DNA of 64,000 bases. Origin: a virus. Its lineage: Duplodnaviria; Caudoviricetes. Shown piece after piece: positions 21,950-48,003 of the stretch (the stretch's first letter is position 1; every line of letters begins with the position of its first letter). The notes beneath the pieces were generated by a model, which was not told the origin of the DNA, searched no databases, and saw only the letters and a list, made by a program, of their open reading frames with translations. A program made the position numbers and the translations under genes. The DNA lies in the IMG/VR virus record IMGVR_UViG_3300011989_000009, positions 28,786-92,785 of that record, one strand, 5' to 3'.

Positions 21950-22831
21950 TTAAAGTGTATACTCTGGTAATGTGATATGGAAATAATCTTCTAAAAACTT
22001 TTTGTAATCAACAGATTCTCCAAAGATACCCCCCCTAAATTCCTTTTGGGTCATCAACCATTGCTGATACTGATCGTATCTGTCGAAGAAAACGTTGGCA
22101 TAGAAATATTGATATACATTTCCATGATAGTTCTTGACGACATCAGAATCCTTATGTGACGACATAAACTTCCATGCCGCACGAAGATAAGCCTTCACCA
22201 TACCTGGATAGACTTTGAACTCAGCAAGACGACCTTTGTAATACTTCAACGGACAGCATATACAGCCCAAACGCCGGGAAATATCAACAGAACCATCCTC
22301 TCGATAATACAAAGGATGGAGCTTTATCTTGCGCTCATTGATGAAGTCAAGCTCGTCTTTATCCGTCCAGTCAAGAATGGGATATATAGCATTGGCATGC
22401 ACAGCCTTACTGCCATAGATACGGCATTCCGTTGGCTCTGAGTAGCGCTTATAGCGCTTGGTACTCTCACATCTACGAATCCCCATCACGACATTATCCA
22501 TCACCTTGTACTCTTTCAGCACTTCGCAACAGAAACGATGCCTACGATTAGGAAAGCCTTTGGCAGCAACTAAATGGAAGAAGGTCTCATTCTTGCGAAT
22601 GATCTTTGCTCCCTGTTCCTGTACATGCTTGATAGTGCCCGGCGGGTCTATAGTAGTGTTCTTGTATATGGCACGGTACTCTATCCCGCTCATTTTGGCA
22701 AGCTCCAATATAACATCAGAATCCTTGCCACCACTATAAGCTATCTCCAACGGCTCACCAGCAGCCTTGTAGCAAACTTGCAAGAGCTTAACAGCTTGCG
22801 AAACTTTCTTCTGTAAGTGTATATTCATCAT
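21950..22831 (-). CDS. PAPS reductase family protein
   Basis: YSGGKDS PP-loop, RFCCEVLK, GIRRCES, RLGCICCP; G7 tract at 22029-22035 near the 3' end. Confidence 0.88.
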   Translation of the reverse strand: MMNIHLQKKVSQAVKLLQVCYKAAGEPLEIAYSGGKDSDVILELAKMSGIEYRAIYKNTTIDPPGTIKHVQEQGAKIIRKNETFFHLVAAKGFPNRRHRFCCEVLKEYKVMDNVVMGIRRCESTKRYKRYSEPTECRIYGSKAVHANAIYPILDWTDKDELDFINERKIKLHPLYYREDGSVDISRRLGCICCPLKYYKGRLAEFKVYPGMVKAYLRAAWKFMSSHKDSDVVKNYHGNVYQYFYANVFFDRYDQYQQWLMTQKEFRGGIFGESVDYKKFLEDYFHITLPEYTL

Positions 22832-28743: not shown

Positions 28744-29052
28744 TTACATGATTTTCTTTCCCAACTTAATAACGAGTACATCTTTGTCTACCGGTGCGCC
28801 CCATTCCGTCTTACCACGTCCGACGGTCACGCTGTCAATCTCATACAGCGCACACACCGAACTATACCCACGATGGAACATGACGTATTTAATATTCTTA
28901 CCGAACCGACGCTGCCATGTATTGATGGCACGATATTCTTCCGTCTTCTCGCCACTGGCAATCATATCATACCATTTGTATTTCAGTACGAGATGCACCG
29001 TATTCGACACCGGCTTCTTCTTGGGCGTATAGATGATTTCCACAATCGACAT
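28744..29052 (-). CDS. ASCH/PUA-like domain protein
   Basis: HLVLKYKWYDMIASGEKTEEYR motif. Confidence 0.8.
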   Translation of the reverse strand: MSIVEIIYTPKKKPVSNTVHLVLKYKWYDMIASGEKTEEYRAINTWQRRFGKNIKYVMFHRGYSSVCALYEIDSVTVGRGKTEWGAPVDKDVLVIKLGKKIM

Positions 29053-33085: not shown

Positions 33086-34420
33086 TCAGAGGGCTCTTTC
33101 TATCACGAGAGAGGCATTGGTGCCACCGAAGCCAAAGTTGTTGAGCAACGCTGTTGTTATCTTTGCCGACTGAGGGGTGTGGGGTATGTTAAGATGACGA
33201 GCGGCGGGGATGGGATTCTCTAAGTTGATGTTTGGTGAGACGAACTCGCCCCTCATCTGCATGATGGTATAGACGACTTGTGAGACGCCAGACATCCAAC
33301 ACTCGTGACCCGTCAGACACTTCGTGGCAACGACGTAAGGGCGTGCATATACTTCTTTTTCCGTATGCTTGCTGCCAATAAAGGTATCACACATACATGT
33401 GATTGCTTTTGCCTCGGCTTCGTCACCCTCAACAGTGCCAGTGGCATGTGCCATCACCATATCAATATCAGAGAAGAGCATATCAGCGTCATTACAGGCT
33501 GCGCACATCGTATGAACATAGCTGGCGTCATCAGGCTTGATGATAGAGTCGGATGTGGAATAACCATACCCGGAAACAACGGCGAGGGCAGGAATAGCCT
33601 CGGCAATCTTCGGGCGGTAGGTGTACAAAGCCATACGGTCGTGAAGAAACATCGGTGGCGAACAACGCTCCATGACGATGGCAGCAGCACCGCCGGAGGG
33701 CACAAGACCATCGTGCTTCTCGTCGAAGGGACGGGAGGCATGGACAGGATCATCAGACTGAGAGAAGATACCCAGTGAGTCGAAAGCCCACGAGCTGACG
33801 ACATCATCTTCCTGGGCACCGACGACGATGCAGCGGTTCACTGCCCCACTCTCGATGAGCGTCTTGGCCAGTCCTACAGCATGACCGCCACCGGCACAGG
33901 CGGCAGAGACGGAAAGCGTAAGGCCACGGATATGAAAGAACTGCGATAGGGTCATACTCACGTTGCTGTTGAGCGTCTTGAAAACGCTGTAACCGCCTAA
34001 AGCCCGCGTGTCGTTGACCTCACTCATAATATCACCGATCTGCACGGTCTCTGCGATGGCACTGTCTGACGACACGATAAGGGCGGAACTGGACAAATCT
34101 ACGTCCGTGAGTTTTGCTTGCTCCACAGCCTCGCCAACGGCCATTGCTGCCCATATTGCCTGCTCGGTCATAGCCTTACGGACGGCTTGGGAAACGTGAT
34201 ACTTCTTTATCAGTTCCTTCCATCTCGCTGCGTCTTCCGAGGTTCTGTTAGCAACAACGCCCATCAGACTGCTCTGATAGCCGTTTGCCTCACGCAAATC
34301 TGAACGGGAGAGACCGCTCTGACCATTCGCGAGATGCTGAGCTACCTTGTTCAAGCCGATACCAATACACGAACAGATACCCATGCCCGTGATCCCTGCT
34401 ATTCTTTTGTCTTGTCGCAT
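33086..34420 (-). CDS. Beta-ketoacyl-ACP synthase (FabB/FabF-like)
   Basis: ITGMGI, catalytic Cys SAACAGG, SRPFD, His AHATGT, K..TGH, NFGFGGTN. Confidence 0.93.
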   Translation of the reverse strand: MRQDKRIAGITGMGICSCIGIGLNKVAQHLANGQSGLSRSDLREANGYQSSLMGVVANRTSEDAARWKELIKKYHVSQAVRKAMTEQAIWAAMAVGEAVEQAKLTDVDLSSSALIVSSDSAIAETVQIGDIMSEVNDTRALGGYSVFKTLNSNVSMTLSQFFHIRGLTLSVSAACAGGGHAVGLAKTLIESGAVNRCIVVGAQEDDVVSSWAFDSLGIFSQSDDPVHASRPFDEKHDGLVPSGGAAAIVMERCSPPMFLHDRMALYTYRPKIAEAIPALAVVSGYGYSTSDSIIKPDDASYVHTMCAACNDADMLFSDIDMVMAHATGTVEGDEAEAKAITCMCDTFIGSKHTEKEVYARPYVVATKCLTGHECWMSGVSQVVYTIMQMRGEFVSPNINLENPIPAARHLNIPHTPQSAKITTALLNNFGFGGTNASLVIERAL

Positions 34421-34677
34421 ATACTTGGTTTTAAAGTTAATAACACGTCGGCAATATCGCCGACCGTCTTAATGTTTCCCAGTTGCTCTCTCGACACCTT
34501 TACTTTGAAGTGCGTCTCGACAACCAACACAATATCGATTTTGGCGAGAGAGTCAAAACCTAATTCCTCCAAGGTGGTGCTTTCTGTATGTTCCACCTTC
34601 TCTTCCGGCGCAAACTCCGGCTCCAGCCGTTGCAGAATGAGCTGGAAAAGATCATCTATCAATTCTGGACGTGTCAT
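34399..34677 (-). CDS. Acyl carrier protein
   Basis: LGFDSLAKID motif; ATG at 34677 overlaps the stop of module 12 (ATGA). Confidence 0.88.
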   Translation of the reverse strand: MTRPELIDDLFQLILQRLEPEFAPEEKVEHTESTTLEELGFDSLAKIDIVLVVETHFKVKVSREQLGNIKTVGDIADVLLTLKPSICDKTKE

Positions 34678-34817
34678 AATGTATATTCTATTAAAATACA
34701 ATGTGGGCACTTGAAGTCAGTACTCCGAAGCGAGGGAGAGATTGTTTTCCACCCCCCCCCAGATGATTGCCACTCAAAAGAATGACTGACTATGTTCACA
34801 CCCACTTTAAAGTTCAT
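34674..34817 (-). CDS. TRD-like module 12 (G9, in frame)
   Basis: MNFKVGVNIVSHSFEWQSSGGGWKTISPSLRSTDFKCPHCILIEYTL*; C9 at 34752-34760. Confidence 0.75.
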   Translation of the reverse strand: MNFKVGVNIVSHSFEWQSSGGGWKTISPSLRSTDFKCPHCILIEYTL

Positions 34818-34986
34818 ACTCTATAATGATTTTACCTACATGCGCAATCGTCAATGTTGCCATTGGATTACGCACGTTTATTAACTGCATCTCGCTTACC
34901 CCCCCCTGACGCTCATCACCCGTAAAAAAGCGAATATTGCCATTCGGAAGCCAATGAGCGAAGATGCCACATTTCCTTGCTTTCAT
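34807..34986 (-). CDS. TRD-like module 11 (G8, in frame)
   Basis: MKARKCGIFAHWLPNGNIRFFTGDERQGGVSEMQLINVRNPMATLTIAHVGKIIIEYEL*; C8 at 34899-34906. Confidence 0.75.
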   Translation of the reverse strand: MKARKCGIFAHWLPNGNIRFFTGDERQGGVSEMQLINVRNPMATLTIAHVGKIIIEYEL

Positions 34987-35124
34987 AATTCGTACTCTAT
35001 AAAAAGCATTGCATTTTTCTGACTGCTTGTAAGCGCATTCGAGAACGACACACTGCCAAGTTCAAGTTGCTGATACGTTTTACCACCCCCCCCTACCACG
35101 CAAAGCGCAACACATATATATCAT
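34983..35124 (-). pseudogene. TRD-like module 10 (G8, out of frame; G7/G10 restores)
   Basis: MIYMCCALRGRGG then TGG TAA; the restored frame gives ...GKTYQQLELGSVSFSNALTSSQKNAMLFIEYEL*; C8 at 35086-35093. Confidence 0.75.
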
Positions 35125-35274
35125 AGTTCATAATTTATTAATATTTTAGGTTTGTCAATATCATGGCCTTGCCCCCCCAATTACGGCAGGAGATATACCA
35201 AAACGAGAGACAACTATACCATTCTGAGAATGCGAATAATAGCCTAACTTTATCACATTTGATCTACACCTCAT
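35121..35274 (-). pseudogene. TRD-like module 9 (G7, out of frame; G6/G9 restores)
   Basis: MRCRSNVIKLGYYSHSQNGIVVSRFGISPAVIGG / QGHDIDKPKILINYEL*; C7 at 35172-35178. Confidence 0.75.
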
Positions 35275-35443
35275 ACTCAATCAATAATAAATTATCCATC
35301 AACGCAGCAGTGACTGTATGAGCATAGTCGAAAGACAAAAAAATATGTTCCGAACGCTTTCTCCGTACTCCACCATCTCCTAACATTTTTCGTTGTTGCT
35401 TATCATGCTCAGAGCGCCCTAAAGTCAAAAACTTATAGTTCAT
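35264..35443 (-). CDS. TRD-like module 8 (no G tract; T7, in frame)
   Basis: MNYKFLTLGRSEHDKQQRKMLGDGGVRRKRSEHIFLSFDYAHTVTAALMDNLLLIEYEV*; similar to module 6. Confidence 0.75.
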   Translation of the reverse strand: MNYKFLTLGRSEHDKQQRKMLGDGGVRRKRSEHIFLSFDYAHTVTAALMDNLLLIEYEV

Positions 35444-35446
35444 ATT

Positions 35447-35644
35447 CTACATAATATATTCCATTAATACAACCGTCTTCGGGAAATGTGCCAACGTGAC
35501 AATATCAGTAATCTCTGAGAGTCCGTCATACCGCGTGTTCAACGTACACGATACTCCACCGTTTGCAACATTCACGGGGATAGAATACCCCCCCCTAATA
35601 GGTTTTCCATCGGCACTGGTAGTGTAAGCTAAATCATAAGTCAT
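35447..35644 (-). CDS. TRD-like module 7 (G8, in frame)
   Basis: MTYDLAYTT...IRGGYSIPVNVANGGVSCTLNTRY...LAHFPKTVVLMEYIM*; C8 at 35588-35595; paralogue of module 1. Confidence 0.8.
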   Translation of the reverse strand: MTYDLAYTTSADGKPIRGGYSIPVNVANGGVSCTLNTRYDGLSEITDIVTLAHFPKTVVLMEYIM

Positions 35645-35816
35645 ATTCAATCAATAACAGATTGTCTTTCTGAACGCTATCAATAGTATTAGCGATCATA
35701 CCCCCCCCTACGTAAACGTGCATGTTAAAATGCACTTTACCGGAATTGTCACCCCACAAGCGACGGATATGTTTGGCTAATGCACTGCGACAAGGTCTTA
35801 ATATCGACTGGTTCAT
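35634..35816 (-). CDS. TRD-like module 6 (G8, in frame)
   Basis: ...YVGGGMIANTIDSVQKDNLLLIEYDL*; C8 at 35701-35708. Confidence 0.8.
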   Translation of the reverse strand: MNQSILRPCRSALAKHIRRLWGDNSGKVHFNMHVYVGGGMIANTIDSVQKDNLLLIEYDL

Positions 35817-37217
35817 TTCGTAAGAGCTTATTTACTTCAAAGATAATACGAGGTTTCTCTACCGTCTGATTATACTGATACAGCTCAGCGATAGCCTTAT
35901 CATCATTTACCTTCATCAGTTTTTCAAGATCAGACTTTGCATAAGCGTGCGTTTTTATCAGCTCGGCCATCTCGTCAGGAACAACACGATATTCAGCCTT
36001 CTCTTTCTGATTACGCGACAAAAATGCTATCACGCTTTCTGGTTTTAAGAAGTAAGTGTCAGCGACATTCTCCTGCAAAATATCGGCGATACACTTCTCC
36101 AATTTGAAAGGTTTAGGAAACTGATACTGTTCCTTGCACACATCGTCACGCACCGACACCATGAAAACTCTCGCACGATTTTTGGGTACACCATAATTTT
36201 TTGCATTGAGAATCTGATAATAGCTATGATAACCACAAGCCTTGACGGTATTATACCACTCCACAAAGTCCGGCCAATTCGTCGAGTCAATCAAAGCTGC
36301 CACATTCTCCTGCAATAAAAAATTTGGCTTTAATGCACGGATAGCGTTTTCGGTGCTCCAAAGAACAGCAGAGCGAGTACCACTTCCTTTCTTGATTCCT
36401 GCGCGCTTCCCCGCAACAGAGATTGATTGACAAGGTGTAGAATAAGTCAGCAAATCAACACCTTCTCCGACATCAATCTTGCTCCAGTCCGCCGTTGTCA
36501 TATCACCTACGTTTCTATCTGCCCATTGAGGGAAGTTCAAATTGTGAGCTTTTACGGCAGGCTGATTTTCGAGCTTTGCTTTGCTCTCTGGATCAAACTC
36601 AGCCCAAGCCTTCAACTCATAATCGAATTTTTTACCTTGCAAAGACGCAAAATTGTGCAGCATCTCCATAGCAATCATCTGAGAATCATAGCCGGAACAC
36701 AGCGTCACCACGTTGATTTTCTTTGGTAATGGCACATCCCAACGTGAGCCGTAATCAAAAATAGAAAATTGTGAACCCGTTGTCGGCTCATACATCCAAA
36801 TATTCTTATAGATGTAAAACAGCACATCGCAGACGATACTGTTCCCTGCAAGTTTATAGCAGGCTGATTTACTGAGAGTGCTCGGATTATCCGTCATTCT
36901 GGCAATATAGTTATCCGGCACGCCCATCAAACGAAAACACTCTACGGGCGTGAGCTTACGAATATCAAACAAACGCGGGTCGGCGTTAGGGATGAATTTT
37001 GCTATCATAGTTCTTTGTAAATCTTTATCAAAACACGAGTCTAAAATTGGTACGGAAACGAAATAATGATTGCTGGAGGAAATACGAGTTGTCAATGTGC
37101 CATATATCTCGTCACTGACAATACCGTTATAGGCGTCTACCCAGAGATAGGGCTTATCTATTACCCCCCCCTAATCATGCGATTGATACGACTTGAATAA
37201 GTTCTGTTATAAGGCAT
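35749..37217 (-). CDS. Circularly permuted C5-cytosine DNA methyltransferase with N-terminal TRD-like module 5; G8 tract currently out of frame
   Basis: Motif order IX (RKLTPVECFRLMG), X (YKLAGNSI), I (TLCSGYDSQ), IV (STPCQ), VI (QENV), VIII (PKNRARVF). ATG 37217 reads MPYNRTYSSRINRMIRGG-TAA at C8 37164-37171; G9 or G6 joins it to the 35749-37095 ORF. Confidence 0.88.
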
Positions 37218-37371
37218 ACTCTACTAAAATGTTAGGAACAAATCCACCCCCCCCCGCATAGTTAAACACGGTGGCAGCAATGCCGTTTGCAAAATAGATT
37301 CTGTCTCGTTGGGCATTATTCCTATGATGTTCTTTGATATGCCCTATTTGAATGATTCTGTCATATTTCAT
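37207..37371 (-). CDS. TRD-like module 4 (G9, in frame)
   Basis: MKYDRIIQIGHIKEHHRNNAQRDRIYFANGIAATVFNYAGGGGFVPNILVEYAL*; C9 at 37247-37255. Confidence 0.8.
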   Translation of the reverse strand: MKYDRIIQIGHIKEHHRNNAQRDRIYFANGIAATVFNYAGGGGFVPNILVEYAL

Positions 37372-37534
37372 AAACGACCATTATTCCTGTCTCATTAAAT
37401 CCGTCATTTCTTTTTAAAACGAAGTTGGCTCCACAAGCCTTGTAATATACGGACCGCAAAGACATTGCCGTGCCGTCAGTACTTACGCTTATCGGAAGTT
37501 CATGCCCCCCCCGTATGAGGTGCTTATAATTCAT
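37361..37534 (-). CDS. TRD-like module 3 (G8, in frame)
   Basis: MNYKHLIRGGHELPISVSTDGTAMSLRSVYYKACGANFVLKRNDGFNETGIMVVYEI*; C8 at 37505-37512. Confidence 0.75.
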   Translation of the reverse strand: MNYKHLIRGGHELPISVSTDGTAMSLRSVYYKACGANFVLKRNDGFNETGIMVVYEI

Positions 37535-37680
37535 ATTCTATTCTTACATGTGGCGTTGTTACTCCTTTATACCCTCCCCCCACAGAAAGACGTTATCGTA
37601 TTGCAAATATCCTTAAAATGGTACTTGCTTACGCTTCCGTCTTTGCTATGGCGAGTCCAGCCTACAAACTTATAAATCAT
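37524..37680 (-). pseudogene. TRD-like module 2 (G6, out of frame; G5/G8 restores)
   Basis: MIYKFVGWTRHSKDGSVSKYHFKDICNTITSFCG / GGYKGVTTPHVRIEYEL*; C6 at 37576-37581. Confidence 0.75.
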
Positions 37681-37861
37681 ATTCAAACAACACAACCGTC
37701 ATAGGATAATGGGCAAGCGTTATAATATTGTTACAACCGATTGCCTCATATCTTGTATTGAGTGTGCAGGCAAGCCCACCGTTGGCGGTATTAACGGGTT
37801 GATGATACCCCCCCCTAACAGACTTGCCCGGACACGTTGTGGTTAAAGACAGTTTCAACAT
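37670..37861 (-). CDS. TRD-like module 1 (G8, in frame)
   Basis: ...VRGGYHQPVNTANGGLACTLNTRY...LAHYPMTVVLFEYDL*; C8 at 37808-37815. Confidence 0.8.
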   Translation of the reverse strand: MLKLSLTTTCPGKSVRGGYHQPVNTANGGLACTLNTRYEAIGCNNIITLAHYPMTVVLFEYDL

Positions 37862-37862
37862 T

Positions 37863-39008
37863 CTACGCTTCCACTATCAGCGGCATGACGAGGCCGGTGT
37901 AGGGCGATGTCGTCTCGTCGTGCATGATGATAGCACGGGACGGCTCACCAAACTCCATACGCACATTGTCGGAAGAGACGAAATCGAGCATCTTGCGGAG
38001 ATTGTCGTAGCGCATACCAATCTTGTAACCGTCGGGAAGGTTGCAGGCGTCCTCGACATCGGCGAGCGGAAGATTTTCCTTTGCCTCATGGTTAAAGTCG
38101 AGGTCGATGGATGAGAGGTAGAACTGACCCTTCTCGCAAGAGAGCGTCACCATGCACGAGGCGATACTGGCCATGACCGCCACACGTGAGATACTTTCTT
38201 TCAGCGACTTCACGGGCATGATGACGTGATAATCATTGTCGGTAGGGATCGCCGCATTGTAGTTAGGATATTTGCCCTCAATGGTACGGATCGTGAAGCA
38301 GGTGCCACCAGAGATAATCTCCATACCGTTGTTGTCAGCTTGTATCAGCACCGTCTCGGCACCGGCAAAAGGCGCGGTCAATGCTGATACCACAGCACCA
38401 GGCATTAAGAGCTCAGTAGGAGCACCAGACTTCAAGAAGGGCACGCCATGGCTGTAGACGTACTTATAAAGCGTCCTACCATCGGATGAAACGAAGACGA
38501 CACCCTCATTGGTGACATCCAGACATACCGCATTCATCACGGGGCGTATCACGTTATGATCGGTACTCTGAGCGGCATCCTTGCAACAGGAAAGCAGCAC
38601 GTCCGTGGGCAGTTCAAACGAGACCTTCGGCGCGTTCATCGGCTGCGTGCGCGGGAAGTCATCGGCAGACTGGATCGTTATCCGTACCTCACCACCCTGA
38701 TAGCTGATACGCGCCGTGGTGAGCTTATTGTCAATCTCGAACGTCAGCGGCTGTTCCGGCAGTGCACTGATGAACGATGACACCAGATTAGGGTTGATGC
38801 AGAACGGTTTGAAATCACCCTCCAGCATGGTCAGCGCCAAGGGCATGACGAGCGTATTCTCCTGCGAGGACGAGGTAGCCGTGAAAGCGTCACCGTTCTG
38901 TGTCACGAGGACATTTTCGAGAACGGCAATAGCGTTTTTCTTTAAGATGACCTTCATCAGCGCGTTCAGCACACGAAGCAGGTCGGTACGAGAAACATTG
39001 AATTTCAT
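37863..39008 (-). CDS. dnaN: DNA polymerase III beta sliding clamp
   Basis: MKFNVSR..., DDFP, RPVMNAV, SSDGRTL, IEGKYPNY, terminal LVMPL. Confidence 0.93.
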   Translation of the reverse strand: MKFNVSRTDLLRVLNALMKVILKKNAIAVLENVLVTQNGDAFTATSSSQENTLVMPLALTMLEGDFKPFCINPNLVSSFISALPEQPLTFEIDNKLTTARISYQGGEVRITIQSADDFPRTQPMNAPKVSFELPTDVLLSCCKDAAQSTDHNVIRPVMNAVCLDVTNEGVVFVSSDGRTLYKYVYSHGVPFLKSGAPTELLMPGAVVSALTAPFAGAETVLIQADNNGMEIISGGTCFTIRTIEGKYPNYNAAIPTDNDYHVIMPVKSLKESISRVAVMASIASCMVTLSCEKGQFYLSSIDLDFNHEAKENLPLADVEDACNLPDGYKIGMRYDNLRKMLDFVSSDNVRMEFGEPSRAIIMHDETTSPYTGLVMPLIVEA

Positions 39009-46909: not shown

Positions 46910-47233
46910 ATGGGTCAAAAAAGAAAAAATACCGACGAGGACGAAGAGAAAAAGGGTCCGTCCCTTGAAGATTTCGTCGTCCACGAAAAAATCAAGGCGT
47001 TCATCGACGCTTACATGCCGACGGACACGGAACGCATGGCTTCTGAGGTCTTCGACGATGCACGCCTACGTACCTTCTTCAAAGCCTATCCCTGCTCGTT
47101 AGGTGATCCGCTGACCATCATCTTGTCTTACCTCACTGCTGCCGGATTCCAGATGCGCGTCTCCGACAACGGCGAACCCGCCATTTTTGTCATCAACAAA
47201 GAGAGCGGACTACATCTACTGGAAAGCGTATGA
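46910..47233 (+). CDS. Hypothetical protein
   Basis: 107 aa; TAATTTTG promoter element at 46881. Confidence 0.7.
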   Translation: MGQKRKNTDEDEEKKGPSLEDFVVHEKIKAFIDAYMPTDTERMASEVFDDARLRTFFKAYPCSLGDPLTIILSYLTAAGFQMRVSDNGEPAIFVINKESGLHLLESV

Positions 47234-48003
47234 AAGATTTATTTGATATGGATCCCGTTGCGCAATATGATAAAAGCGTACACGCAAAAAACGGCAGAGC
47301 GAGAGTCTTCAAGACGCTTGGAGCCAGCAATCACACCGAACAAGACAGAGGAGCTTTCGATTATTATGCTACGGAACCAAAAGCTACGGAACTGTTATTG
47401 AAATTAGAACATTTCAACAATAACATTCTTGAACCATGCTGTGGAGAAGGGCATATTAGTGAAGTACTGAAACGGGGGAGACTGTCCGAGAACTCCCGAA
47501 GAGGTGTCAAACTGTCATCAGAACATAGTTCTTTGAAGAAGTGTGCACCTTGCGTTAAATCGAACGTTTTACGATCAACAATTAAGCCGCAATCTAGTTC
47601 TCGGACGGCCTGGGGGGGGTATCACGTTACATCACGTGACCTTATCAATCACGGATATGGTGAACAAGCTGACTTTCTTGATATGGCCAACACAGAATGG
47701 AACGGAGATATTATCACCAATCCACCTTATGCACTGGCTAAAGAGTTTGTTGAAAAAGCGATAAGAATCATACCACGAGGGAACAAAGTAGCTATGTTTC
47801 TCAAACTCACATTCCTTGAAGGAAAGCAAAGACGTGAACTTTTCCGGATTTTTCCTCCTATCCGTGTATGGGTGTCTTCCTCCCGTCTTGCGTGCGCCAT
47901 GAATGGAGACTTTGAAAAATACTCCGGTTCTGCTACCGCCTACGCATGGTTCATTTGGCAAAAGGGATTTAAAGGCGACCCAATTATAAAATGGTTTAAT
48001 TAA
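47230..48003 (+). CDS. Amino (N6A/N4C) DNA methyltransferase with in-frame 46-codon insertion and G8 tract
   Basis: DYYATE, motif I ILEPCCGEG, motif IV IITNPPY, LKLTFLEG. Confidence 0.88.
   Translation: MKDLFDMDPVAQYDKSVHAKNGRARVFKTLGASNHTEQDRGAFDYYATEPKATELLLKLEHFNNNILEPCCGEGHISEVLKRGRLSENSRRGVKLSSEHSSLKKCAPCVKSNVLRSTIKPQSSSRTAWGGYHVTSRDLINHGYGEQADFLDMANTEWNGDIITNPPYALAKEFVEKAIRIIPRGNKVAMFLKLTFLEGKQRRELFRIFPPIRVWVSSSRLACAMNGDFEKYSGSATAYAWFIWQKGFKGDPIIKWFN
47479..47611. mobile_element. 133-bp MITE-like insertion
   Basis: Ends AGACTGTCCGAGAACT and AGTTCTCGGACGGCCT (14/16 inverted match), flanked by GGGGG on both sides (5-bp target duplication). Confidence 0.75.

Follow-up and report, generated by a model that had tools for sequence, protein, structure and literature searches.

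The 64,000-nt window analysed here is the final 64 kb of the 92,785-bp contig of a tailed phage (Caudoviricetes; IMG/VR record IMGVR_UViG_3300011989_000009, positions 28,786 to 92,785). Between a dnaN-like gene and an acyl carrier protein (ACP) gene on its minus strand lie twelve short head-to-tail coding modules, arranged around a circularly permuted cytosine-5 DNA methyltransferase (C5 MTase). Modules of the array are homologous to the target recognition domains (TRDs) of multispecific C5 MTases and evolve under purifying selection, most related enzymes have no TRD of their own, and the lengths of the G tracts inside the modules differ between close relatives in ways that toggle the reading frame. 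We hold with moderate confidence that the locus encodes a split, multispecific, phase-variable C5 MTase system, in which methylation specificities are, judging from the sequence, probably switched one by one via slippery G runs.

Architecture of the array and its G tracts

The locus (34674-37861) had been described in a sequence-only reading of the window as twelve head-to-tail mini-genes between dnaN and the ACP gene. Three-frame reading of the minus strand, scripted read-through of the tracts and mapping of the junctions reproduced this arrangement with one amendment: the fifth module (E) is not a free mini-gene and forms the N-terminal TRD of the enzyme, while the other eleven are open reading frames (ORFs) of their own with start and stop. 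Tracts of six to nine G (G6-G9) occur in 11 of the 12 modules, H being the one without. Seven of them are in frame (ON; A, C, F, G and K with G8, D and L with G9) and four are out of frame (OFF; B with G6, I with G7, E and J with G8), every length and frame state agreeing with the earlier reading. As it had also proposed, a single base mends the frame of each OFF module, by loss of one G in B, I and J and by gain of one in E. From upstream to downstream the features are as follows (aa, amino acids).

37863..39008, minus strand: dnaN-like sliding-clamp gene, upstream flank; three Pfam DNA_pol3_beta matches; stop at 37863
37670..37861, minus strand: module A, 63 aa, A-type; G8 at 37808-37815, ON; ATG 1 nt past the dnaN stop
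37524..37680, minus strand: module B; G6 at 37576-37581, OFF; G5 or G8 would give a 51/52-aa product with an IEYEL end
37361..37534, minus strand: module C, 57 aa; G8 at 37505-37512, ON
37207..37371, minus strand: module D, 54 aa; G9 at 37247-37255, ON
35749..37217, minus strand: permuted C5 MTase with its own TRD (E); ATG at 37217; G8 at 37164-37171, OFF; stop at 37163-37161
35634..35816, minus strand: module F, 60 aa; G8 at 35701-35708, ON; 68-nt overlap with the 3′ end of the enzyme gene
35447..35644, minus strand: module G, 65 aa, paralogue of A; G8 at 35588-35595, ON
35264..35443, minus strand: module H, 59 aa, F/H-type; the sole module without a G tract
35121..35274, minus strand: module I; G7 at 35172-35178, OFF; G6 or G9 would give a 50/51-aa product
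34983..35124, minus strand: module J; G8 at 35086-35093, OFF; G7 would give a 46-aa product
34807..34986, minus strand: module K, 59 aa; G8 at 34899-34906, ON
34674..34817, minus strand: module L, 47 aa, with an SPxLR..D[FY]KCPHC motif; G9 at 34752-34760, ON
34399..34677, minus strand: ACP gene, downstream flank; ATG at 34677, start-coupled to module L; Pfam PP-binding
33086..34420, minus strand: ketoacyl synthase gene, following the ACP gene; Pfam ketoacyl-synt

Starts on or near the preceding stop, another feature of the earlier description, were found throughout. Seven of the twelve junctions place the following ATG within a TATGA (Tyr-Glu/Asp codons) of the preceding tail, giving an 11-nt overlap, and three junctions are ATGA overlaps; the TGA of module L overlaps the ATG of the ACP gene in the same way (ATGA), and the 68-nt overlap of the sixth module (F) with the enzyme is as previously stated. 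A repeat of 17-21 nt is common to the module junctions. The modules share a conserved tail, a hydrophobic-E-Y-x-h strand that in fused enzymes stands directly before motif IX, and the OFF product of every module lacks this tail. Recoding of TGA or TAG was considered as a means of fusing the modules and was rejected, since the module that follows lies in a different frame and, read with code 11, the flanking genes are whole. In a relative of module H (P0258) the stop TAG of H reads TGG in some assemblies, producing a 96-aa read-through into the out-of-frame start of I. The start of module K (..WLPNGNIRFF.., 34807-34986) is weakly similar to the N-terminal strand of the core (MIAKFIPN..RLF, 36940-37008).

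Ten of the 13 G/C runs of at least 7 nt in the whole 92,785-bp genome sit in the 3,188 bp of the locus, which is 3.4% of the genome (94-fold enrichment), and all ten are G on the coding strand; the remaining three are the only ones elsewhere, in keeping with the remark in the sequence-only reading that G7-G9 runs are rare outside the array. GGG is the rarest Gly codon of this genome (9.9% of Gly codons), and GGGGGG accounts for one of the 121 Gly-Gly dicodons in ORFs of at least 150 aa. Given this enrichment, the uniform strand and the rarity of the codon, the clustering is not a product of chance or codon bias, and homopolymer lying in frame is over-represented against genome composition, as in a contingency locus. 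TA follows the majority of the variable tracts, and the context TA-G8-TA recurs at several of them, read in different frames (tracts at 37808, 37164, 35701, 35588 and 34899, and IMG/VR groups), which suggests either a preference at the DNA level or a common origin of the tracts. In the enzyme, TAA TAG after the tract supplies immediate stops in the OFF frame. With 70-1450 nt between the tracts, formation of G-quadruplexes was judged unlikely.

Two long runs outside the array also deserve mention. The sole long G run on the plus strand (G8, 47612-47619) lies within a 257-aa ORF (47230-48003, plus strand) that carries an NPPY adenine-methylase motif and matches no Pfam family, so this second putative DNA-modification gene may bear a contingency tract as well. 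An ORF with a 3′-phosphoadenosine-5′-phosphosulfate (PAPS) reductase domain (21950-22831, minus strand) has a G7 (C7 on the plus strand, 22029-22035) near its 3′ end, and its ...LPEYTL end resembles the tail of the modules.

The permuted methyltransferase and the TRD-related modules

The enzyme within the array matches PF00145 in Pfam (4.6e-48), and the motifs LCSGYD, TPCQSIS, QENV, RKLTPVEC and AGNSIV, read directly, are those of a C5 MTase, motif VIII excepted. The family is marked by motif I for SAM binding, IV with the catalytic Cys (PCQ), VI (ENV), VIII (QxRxR), IX (RxLTxxE) and X (GNS). Its domain order is TRD-IX-X-I-IV-VI-VIII, followed by a C-terminal extension. In a 489-aa protein from another sample (P0001), which is 99% identical to the enzyme and represents its exact G9 (ON) reading, the alignment pairs residues 225-383 with HhaI 49-198, and 86-140 with HhaI 271-318, so motifs IX-X stand ahead of I-VIII. 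The AlphaFold2 (AF2) model of the ON enzyme has a catalytic core with a predicted local distance difference test score (pLDDT) of mostly 84-98; the best Foldseek matches to the core model are 4dkj, HhaI entries and 1dct (E-values 1e-11 to 3e-14), so that the predicted fold is the C5 MTase fold of M.MpeI, M.HhaI and M.HaeIII. The extension after motif VIII is modelled as helical and is not TRD-like. The circular permutation put forward in the sequence-only reading is therefore upheld by family, alignment and fold. Its precedent, M.BssHII as an enzyme both permuted and multispecific, merged two proteins, the multispecific one being what we take to be M.phiBssHII, distinct from M.BssHII. Permuted M.BssHII indeed is: together with M.Alw26I, M2.Eco31I, M.Esp3I and M2.BsaI it forms type H of the permuted C5 MTases, with the N-terminus in the variable region and motifs IX-X before I-VIII (PMC5944983). 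The G9 form of the window enzyme has this same layout; type H enzymes, in contrast, have a single TRD in cis and belong to restriction-modification systems, whereas nearly all relatives of the window enzyme are TRD-less cores with free modules around them (see below). With G9 the gene encodes the 489-aa enzyme with its TRD in cis. With the G8 of the window it stops after 18 codons, and a conserved internal Met71 (ATG 37008) would then yield a 419-aa core without TRD.

Multispecific C5 MTases are known from the Bacillus phages SPR, phi3T, rho11s and SPbeta (Trautner laboratory), and we know of no homopolymer switches among them. Family profiles of the modules were searched against a set of three target sequences, for which alone the E-values hold; the profile of module D was a single sequence and the others came from family alignments. 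In the rho11s MTase (X05242.1) the module D profile matched each of the three TRD segments (residues 268-297, 311-353 and 365-385), and the hidden Markov model (HMM) of the module I family matched rho11s residues 328-353, including the end strand KIAVEY, which is of the hydrophobic-EY kind. In Dulem virus 40 (PP511379.1), a gut phage with a two-gene C5 MTase, the profiles of C, D, J, F and K matched successive segments of the TRD-IX-X subunit (C, residues 2-27, 3e-10; D, 47-94; J, 92-135, 1e-13; F, 119-136; K, 231-286, 6e-10), so that C-, D-, J/F- and K-type TRDs stand there in collinear order. The K-type TRD of this subunit is the final one before motif IX. Another permuted MTase, P0016, has an N-terminal cis TRD with which module B shares 62% identity. 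These small targeted searches bear out the proposal that modules of the array are homologues of C5 MTase TRDs. None of the free modules has a match in Pfam, as expected for variable regions; module D matched nothing among PDB sequences in a phmmer search and was not found within longer proteins, and an I-type module gave no tblastn match in 50,697 phage records.

The likeness to these enzymes lies in there being several short TRDs to one core, and the difference in how they are encoded. TRDs of the rho11s kind stand in tandem in one polypeptide between motifs VIII and IX, whereas in the window each has its own gene, 11 of the 12 with a G tract, and E alone can become part of the core protein. 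Dulem virus 40 has a single 373-aa TRD-IX-X subunit in which its TRDs are fused, and motifs I-VIII lie in a second subunit; that enzyme is not permuted, and its locus, unlike the window, has no G run of at least 7 nt.

A scan of IMG/VR with the enzyme as a single sequence found no relative, and an alignment-based scan was needed, which yielded 80 loci; the core could be delimited in 77. In 72 of these 77 it is preceded by just 10-19 residues before motif IX and hence has no TRD of its own, so that action in trans would be needed; the other five have a fused B-type TRD. Matches to module families number 1-12 per locus (median 7) and lie on the same strand within 4.5 kb of the core. At least 77 IMG/VR phage contigs, roughly 30-110 kb in size, carry such arrays, and the comparison of module number and order, which the sequence-only reading had recommended, showed that both differ between phages. 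In-frame family members are separate ORFs of 43-82 aa, and the median pairwise ratio of nonsynonymous to synonymous substitution rates (dN/dS) of the mini-ORFs is 0.08-0.33, indicating purifying selection. The I-type family is the commonest (70 of 77 loci); the L family, in whose homologues tracts from G6 to G11 occur, is present in 54 of 77. The A-type profile (family alignments A3 and A4) recovered 84 clusters among 1.84 billion representative proteins; the members are 43-111 aa long, stand alone and end with the profile, save for a few long proteins, two of which were examined and are repeat-rich and unrelated. Module H occurs as the same protein on many contigs. The large primase of the phage gave weak matches only, to a Polaribacter phage. 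Sequence conservation thus supports the modules as real, selectively constrained genes kept as separate small ORFs, and the earlier idea of TRDs as separate polypeptides stands for all of them apart from E, which joins the core in cis.

The same survey turned up intermediates between fused and split forms, namely a single ORF with a C-type plus an A-type TRD (L003:2983-3315) and an I-type joined to an A-type TRD (P0192). The fused forms of L003, P0016 and Dulem virus 40, the repeat common to the junctions and the variable number and order of modules would suit another explanation, in which the mini-genes are silent cassettes to be recombined into the N-terminal TRD site or the decaying debris of a fused multispecific enzyme. 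Such an origin is very unlikely in view of the array itself: each module starts at an ATG of its own, coupled to the stop before it, damage is confined to the tracts, the dN/dS values are low, and most relatives lack the expression site altogether because their cores have no TRD. Long repeats, inverted repeats and a recombinase were looked for in the locus and none was evident, and the TRD of the enzyme itself has no EY tail junction.

Tract length and reading frame among relatives

Invariant tracts in relatives would have told against a switch, and the tracts were found to vary. When orthologous tracts in IMG/VR were defined by 20-nt flanks with at most two mismatches per side, length differed within 7 of 7 groups with a modal length of G8, 4 of 5 with G7, 3 of 4 with G6 and 4 of 27 with G5. 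In contrast to the module tracts, a G7 lying about 600 nt into the core gene (e.g. L069:6612) has the same length in 16 of 16 loci. Runs of 7-8 A vary in about half of their orthologous groups.

Length differences are visible in the predicted products as well. The 90%-identity cluster of the window enzyme contains both 489-aa (ON) and 419-aa (OFF, called from Met71) members, and the two forms occur on contigs of 78-93 kb among others. Module D is found with four product ends, whose lengths are exactly those predicted for G7, G8, G9 and G11. The G7 read-through of module J is on record as a 46-aa protein from an 84,258-bp contig, with three further 46-aa members in its cluster, and module I appears in other assemblies in 51-aa and 45-aa forms. 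All four modules that are OFF in the window were found ON elsewhere, not in the third frame.

A DNA pattern search spanning the tracts recovered one metagenome contig and no IMG/VR contig. This 3.7-kb contig (REGX01110807.1, hereafter L083) is collinear with positions 35115-38814 of the window and 95% identical to it over 3.7 kb, with 166 substitutions and 9 indels. Eight of the nine indels lie in module tracts (A to G and I), every one of them with a shift of frame; five changes are exactly -1, and +2, -2, -4 and a T insertion occur as well. Of the modules that are ON in the window, A, C, D, F and G are OFF in L083 (C with G7, F with G6, G with G7); of those that are OFF in the window, B, E and I are ON in L083 (I with G9, B in frame). 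When the states of E and D were paired by the shared bp size of the contigs of record, the window and a 92,898-bp contig were OFF/ON, L083 and the 84,258-bp contig ON/OFF, and an 8,803-bp contig OFF/OFF. Tract length thus varies between close relatives and toggles the frame in the enzyme, in D, J and I, and across L083. Of the independent poly-G switching envisaged in the sequence-only reading, the differing lengths in near-identical phages, the toggled frames and the occurrence of several combinations were confirmed; strict independence does not predict the state of L083, which is opposite to that of the window at all eight shared tracts.

Variation in the DNA also bears on the explanation that ribosomal or transcriptional slippage on the G runs, together with the stop/start overlaps, yields a multi-TRD polypeptide or fixed ON/OFF ratios with no change in the DNA. 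G_GGG_GGG is formally a -1 slippery heptamer, RNA polymerase is able to slip on long homopolymers, and in L043 a module and the core are in frame with one stop between. Against such recoding, the shifts needed are opposite (-1 for E; +1 for B, I and J), the junction sequences are not slippery, the module frames follow no regular pattern, and the tract lengths demonstrably differ between genomes, all of which leaves it only a slight probability.

The ACP and ketoacyl-synthase genes downstream (33086-34677) are translationally coupled to the end of the array and are unusual cargo for a phage; frameshifts in the modules upstream might affect their expression.

Proposed mechanism and its alternatives

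In the system we propose, one permuted catalytic core would be served by TRDs encoded as separate genes of 47-65 codons, chained by stop/start overlaps inside a replication-gene operon. We infer that every module would be translated and that the conserved tail strand of a free module would complete the small domain of a TRD-less core, each module conferring its own target sequence. Slipped-strand change of a G6-G9 tract would move a module in or out of frame. The tract of E would set the mode of the enzyme, G9 giving the 489-aa form with its TRD in cis and the OFF state just the TRD-less core from Met71, and modules in frame would complete the core in trans, whether this is the Met71 core or the natively TRD-less core of most relatives. 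With separate genes one frameshift would silence one specificity and leave the rest intact, which a fused multispecific enzyme could not tolerate. A phage population would consequently carry many methylation repertoires, a presumed benefit being a hedge against both hosts that cut unmethylated DNA and hosts that cut methylated DNA. We give even chances to the most specific form of this proposal, modular holoenzymes in which a TRD-less permuted core accepts any free TRD of ~50 residues via the shared C-terminal strand, with a poly-G switch for each subunit, a toggle between cis and trans, and up to ~2^11 repertoires.

A number of observations weigh against this proposal. All tract lengths come from assembled consensus sequences of unknown platform, and homopolymer miscalls are possible in any single assembly. 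The state of L083, opposite to the window at 8 of 8 shared tracts, is not predicted by independent switching; it could reflect chance (about 1 in 256), linked configurations favouring either the cis TRD or the free modules, or a bias of assembly or platform. Many homologous modules lack a tract (it is present in none of 44 B-type and 17 of 79 I-type matches), so the switch is an elaboration of certain lineages and not a defining part of the module system. Module A folded alone reached a pLDDT of 62, which is of low confidence, and the enzyme's own TRD was modelled below 50. An engineered permuted large domain was not complemented by free TRD-IX fragments of M.MpeI or M.SssI (PMC5944983), and reassembly is therefore not automatic. 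Finally, motif VIII reads KNRAR in the window and QNRAR in 47 homologues, a Q346K change at an invariant position (36181-36183), by which the core copy of this genome may be impaired. Among the close relatives checked, Q346K is common only to P0214, on the 92,898-bp contig; a second change, K299N, lies just before motif VI (36322-36324, minus strand).

The consensus origin of the data, the differences at every tract shared with L083 (five of them exactly -1, which fits a platform bias too) and the instability of the A-runs are what could be expected if the split system were real and the G tracts differed through assembly miscalls or neutral hypermutation, with no evolved switch. We consider this quite unlikely. 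The long runs are gathered in this one locus on the coding strand despite GGG being the rarest Gly codon, and their position differs from module to module; changes of +2, -2 and -4 and the T insertion accompany those of -1; D has four alleles across many independent assemblies; modules that are OFF in the window turn up in the ON state in other assemblies, not in the third frame; and the G7 of the core does not vary.

The low-confidence fold of module A and the failed complementation of M.MpeI and M.SssI would likewise fit a role apart from the core, in which the modules are translated, TRD-derived small proteins that might serve as decoys binding DNA, as regulators or as factors against restriction, and in which TRD-less cores would be unspecific or have another partner. 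This too is unlikely, given that the modules always adjoin a permuted core on the same strand, that P0016, P0001 and Dulem virus 40 have the same module types joined in cis to motif IX, and that their conserved tail is the strand preceding motif IX in the fused enzymes. A split, switchable methyltransferase is thus the reading we prefer.

Separate encoding of core and modules, as read from the genes, has its counterpart in M.EcoHK31I, a naturally split C5 MTase. Split C5 MTases such as M.AquI (alpha/beta) and engineered fragments can reassemble (PMC5944983). M.AquI and M.EcoHK31I consist of two fixed halves, each with conserved motifs, whereas here the partner would be a bare TRD of ~50 aa drawn from up to eleven. 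Phasevarions of bacteria rest on repeat-switched Type III mod or Type I hsdS genes (PMC6902483, 10.1101/2020.06.18.137471); tract slippage toggles methylation specificity there as proposed here, and Type I HsdS is likewise a separate specificity subunit. Those systems, in contrast, employ bacterial adenine MTases of unrelated fold with one switch each, whereas the present locus has a phage cytosine-5 MTase and about eleven parallel switches. Homopolymer contingency loci for bet-hedging are also on record in phages, as hypermutable poly-G in receptor-binding proteins of Campylobacter Fletchervirus (Sorensen 2021), as poly-G in the methylase gene of BPP-1 and as contingency loci of T2/T4 (bioRxiv 10.1101/2025.10.21.683753); these are single tracts in receptor-binding or other genes, and no case among them comprises an array of specificity modules belonging to one enzyme.

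Each ingredient is already known: multispecific arrays of TRDs within a single chain, C5 MTases that are permuted or split, repeat-switched methyltransferases and phage poly-G contingency loci. A full-text literature search found no description of free-standing TRD genes or of poly-G-gated TRD arrays, consistent with the claim of the sequence-only reading that the arrangement was new. If the proposal is true, no C5 methyltransferase known to us before this one would have exchangeable subunits for specificity, a role so far tied to Type I HsdS, and no virus known to us a combinatorial phase-variable methylation system. Blocks of 'hypothetical' mini-ORFs and seeming frameshifts, which gene callers handle badly in many phage contigs, would be accounted for, and programmable cytosine methylation would gain a natural set of parts, about a dozen TRD families of ~50 residues. 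For the phages themselves, it would provide a handle on how they survive in hosts with both methylation-sensitive and methylation-dependent restriction.

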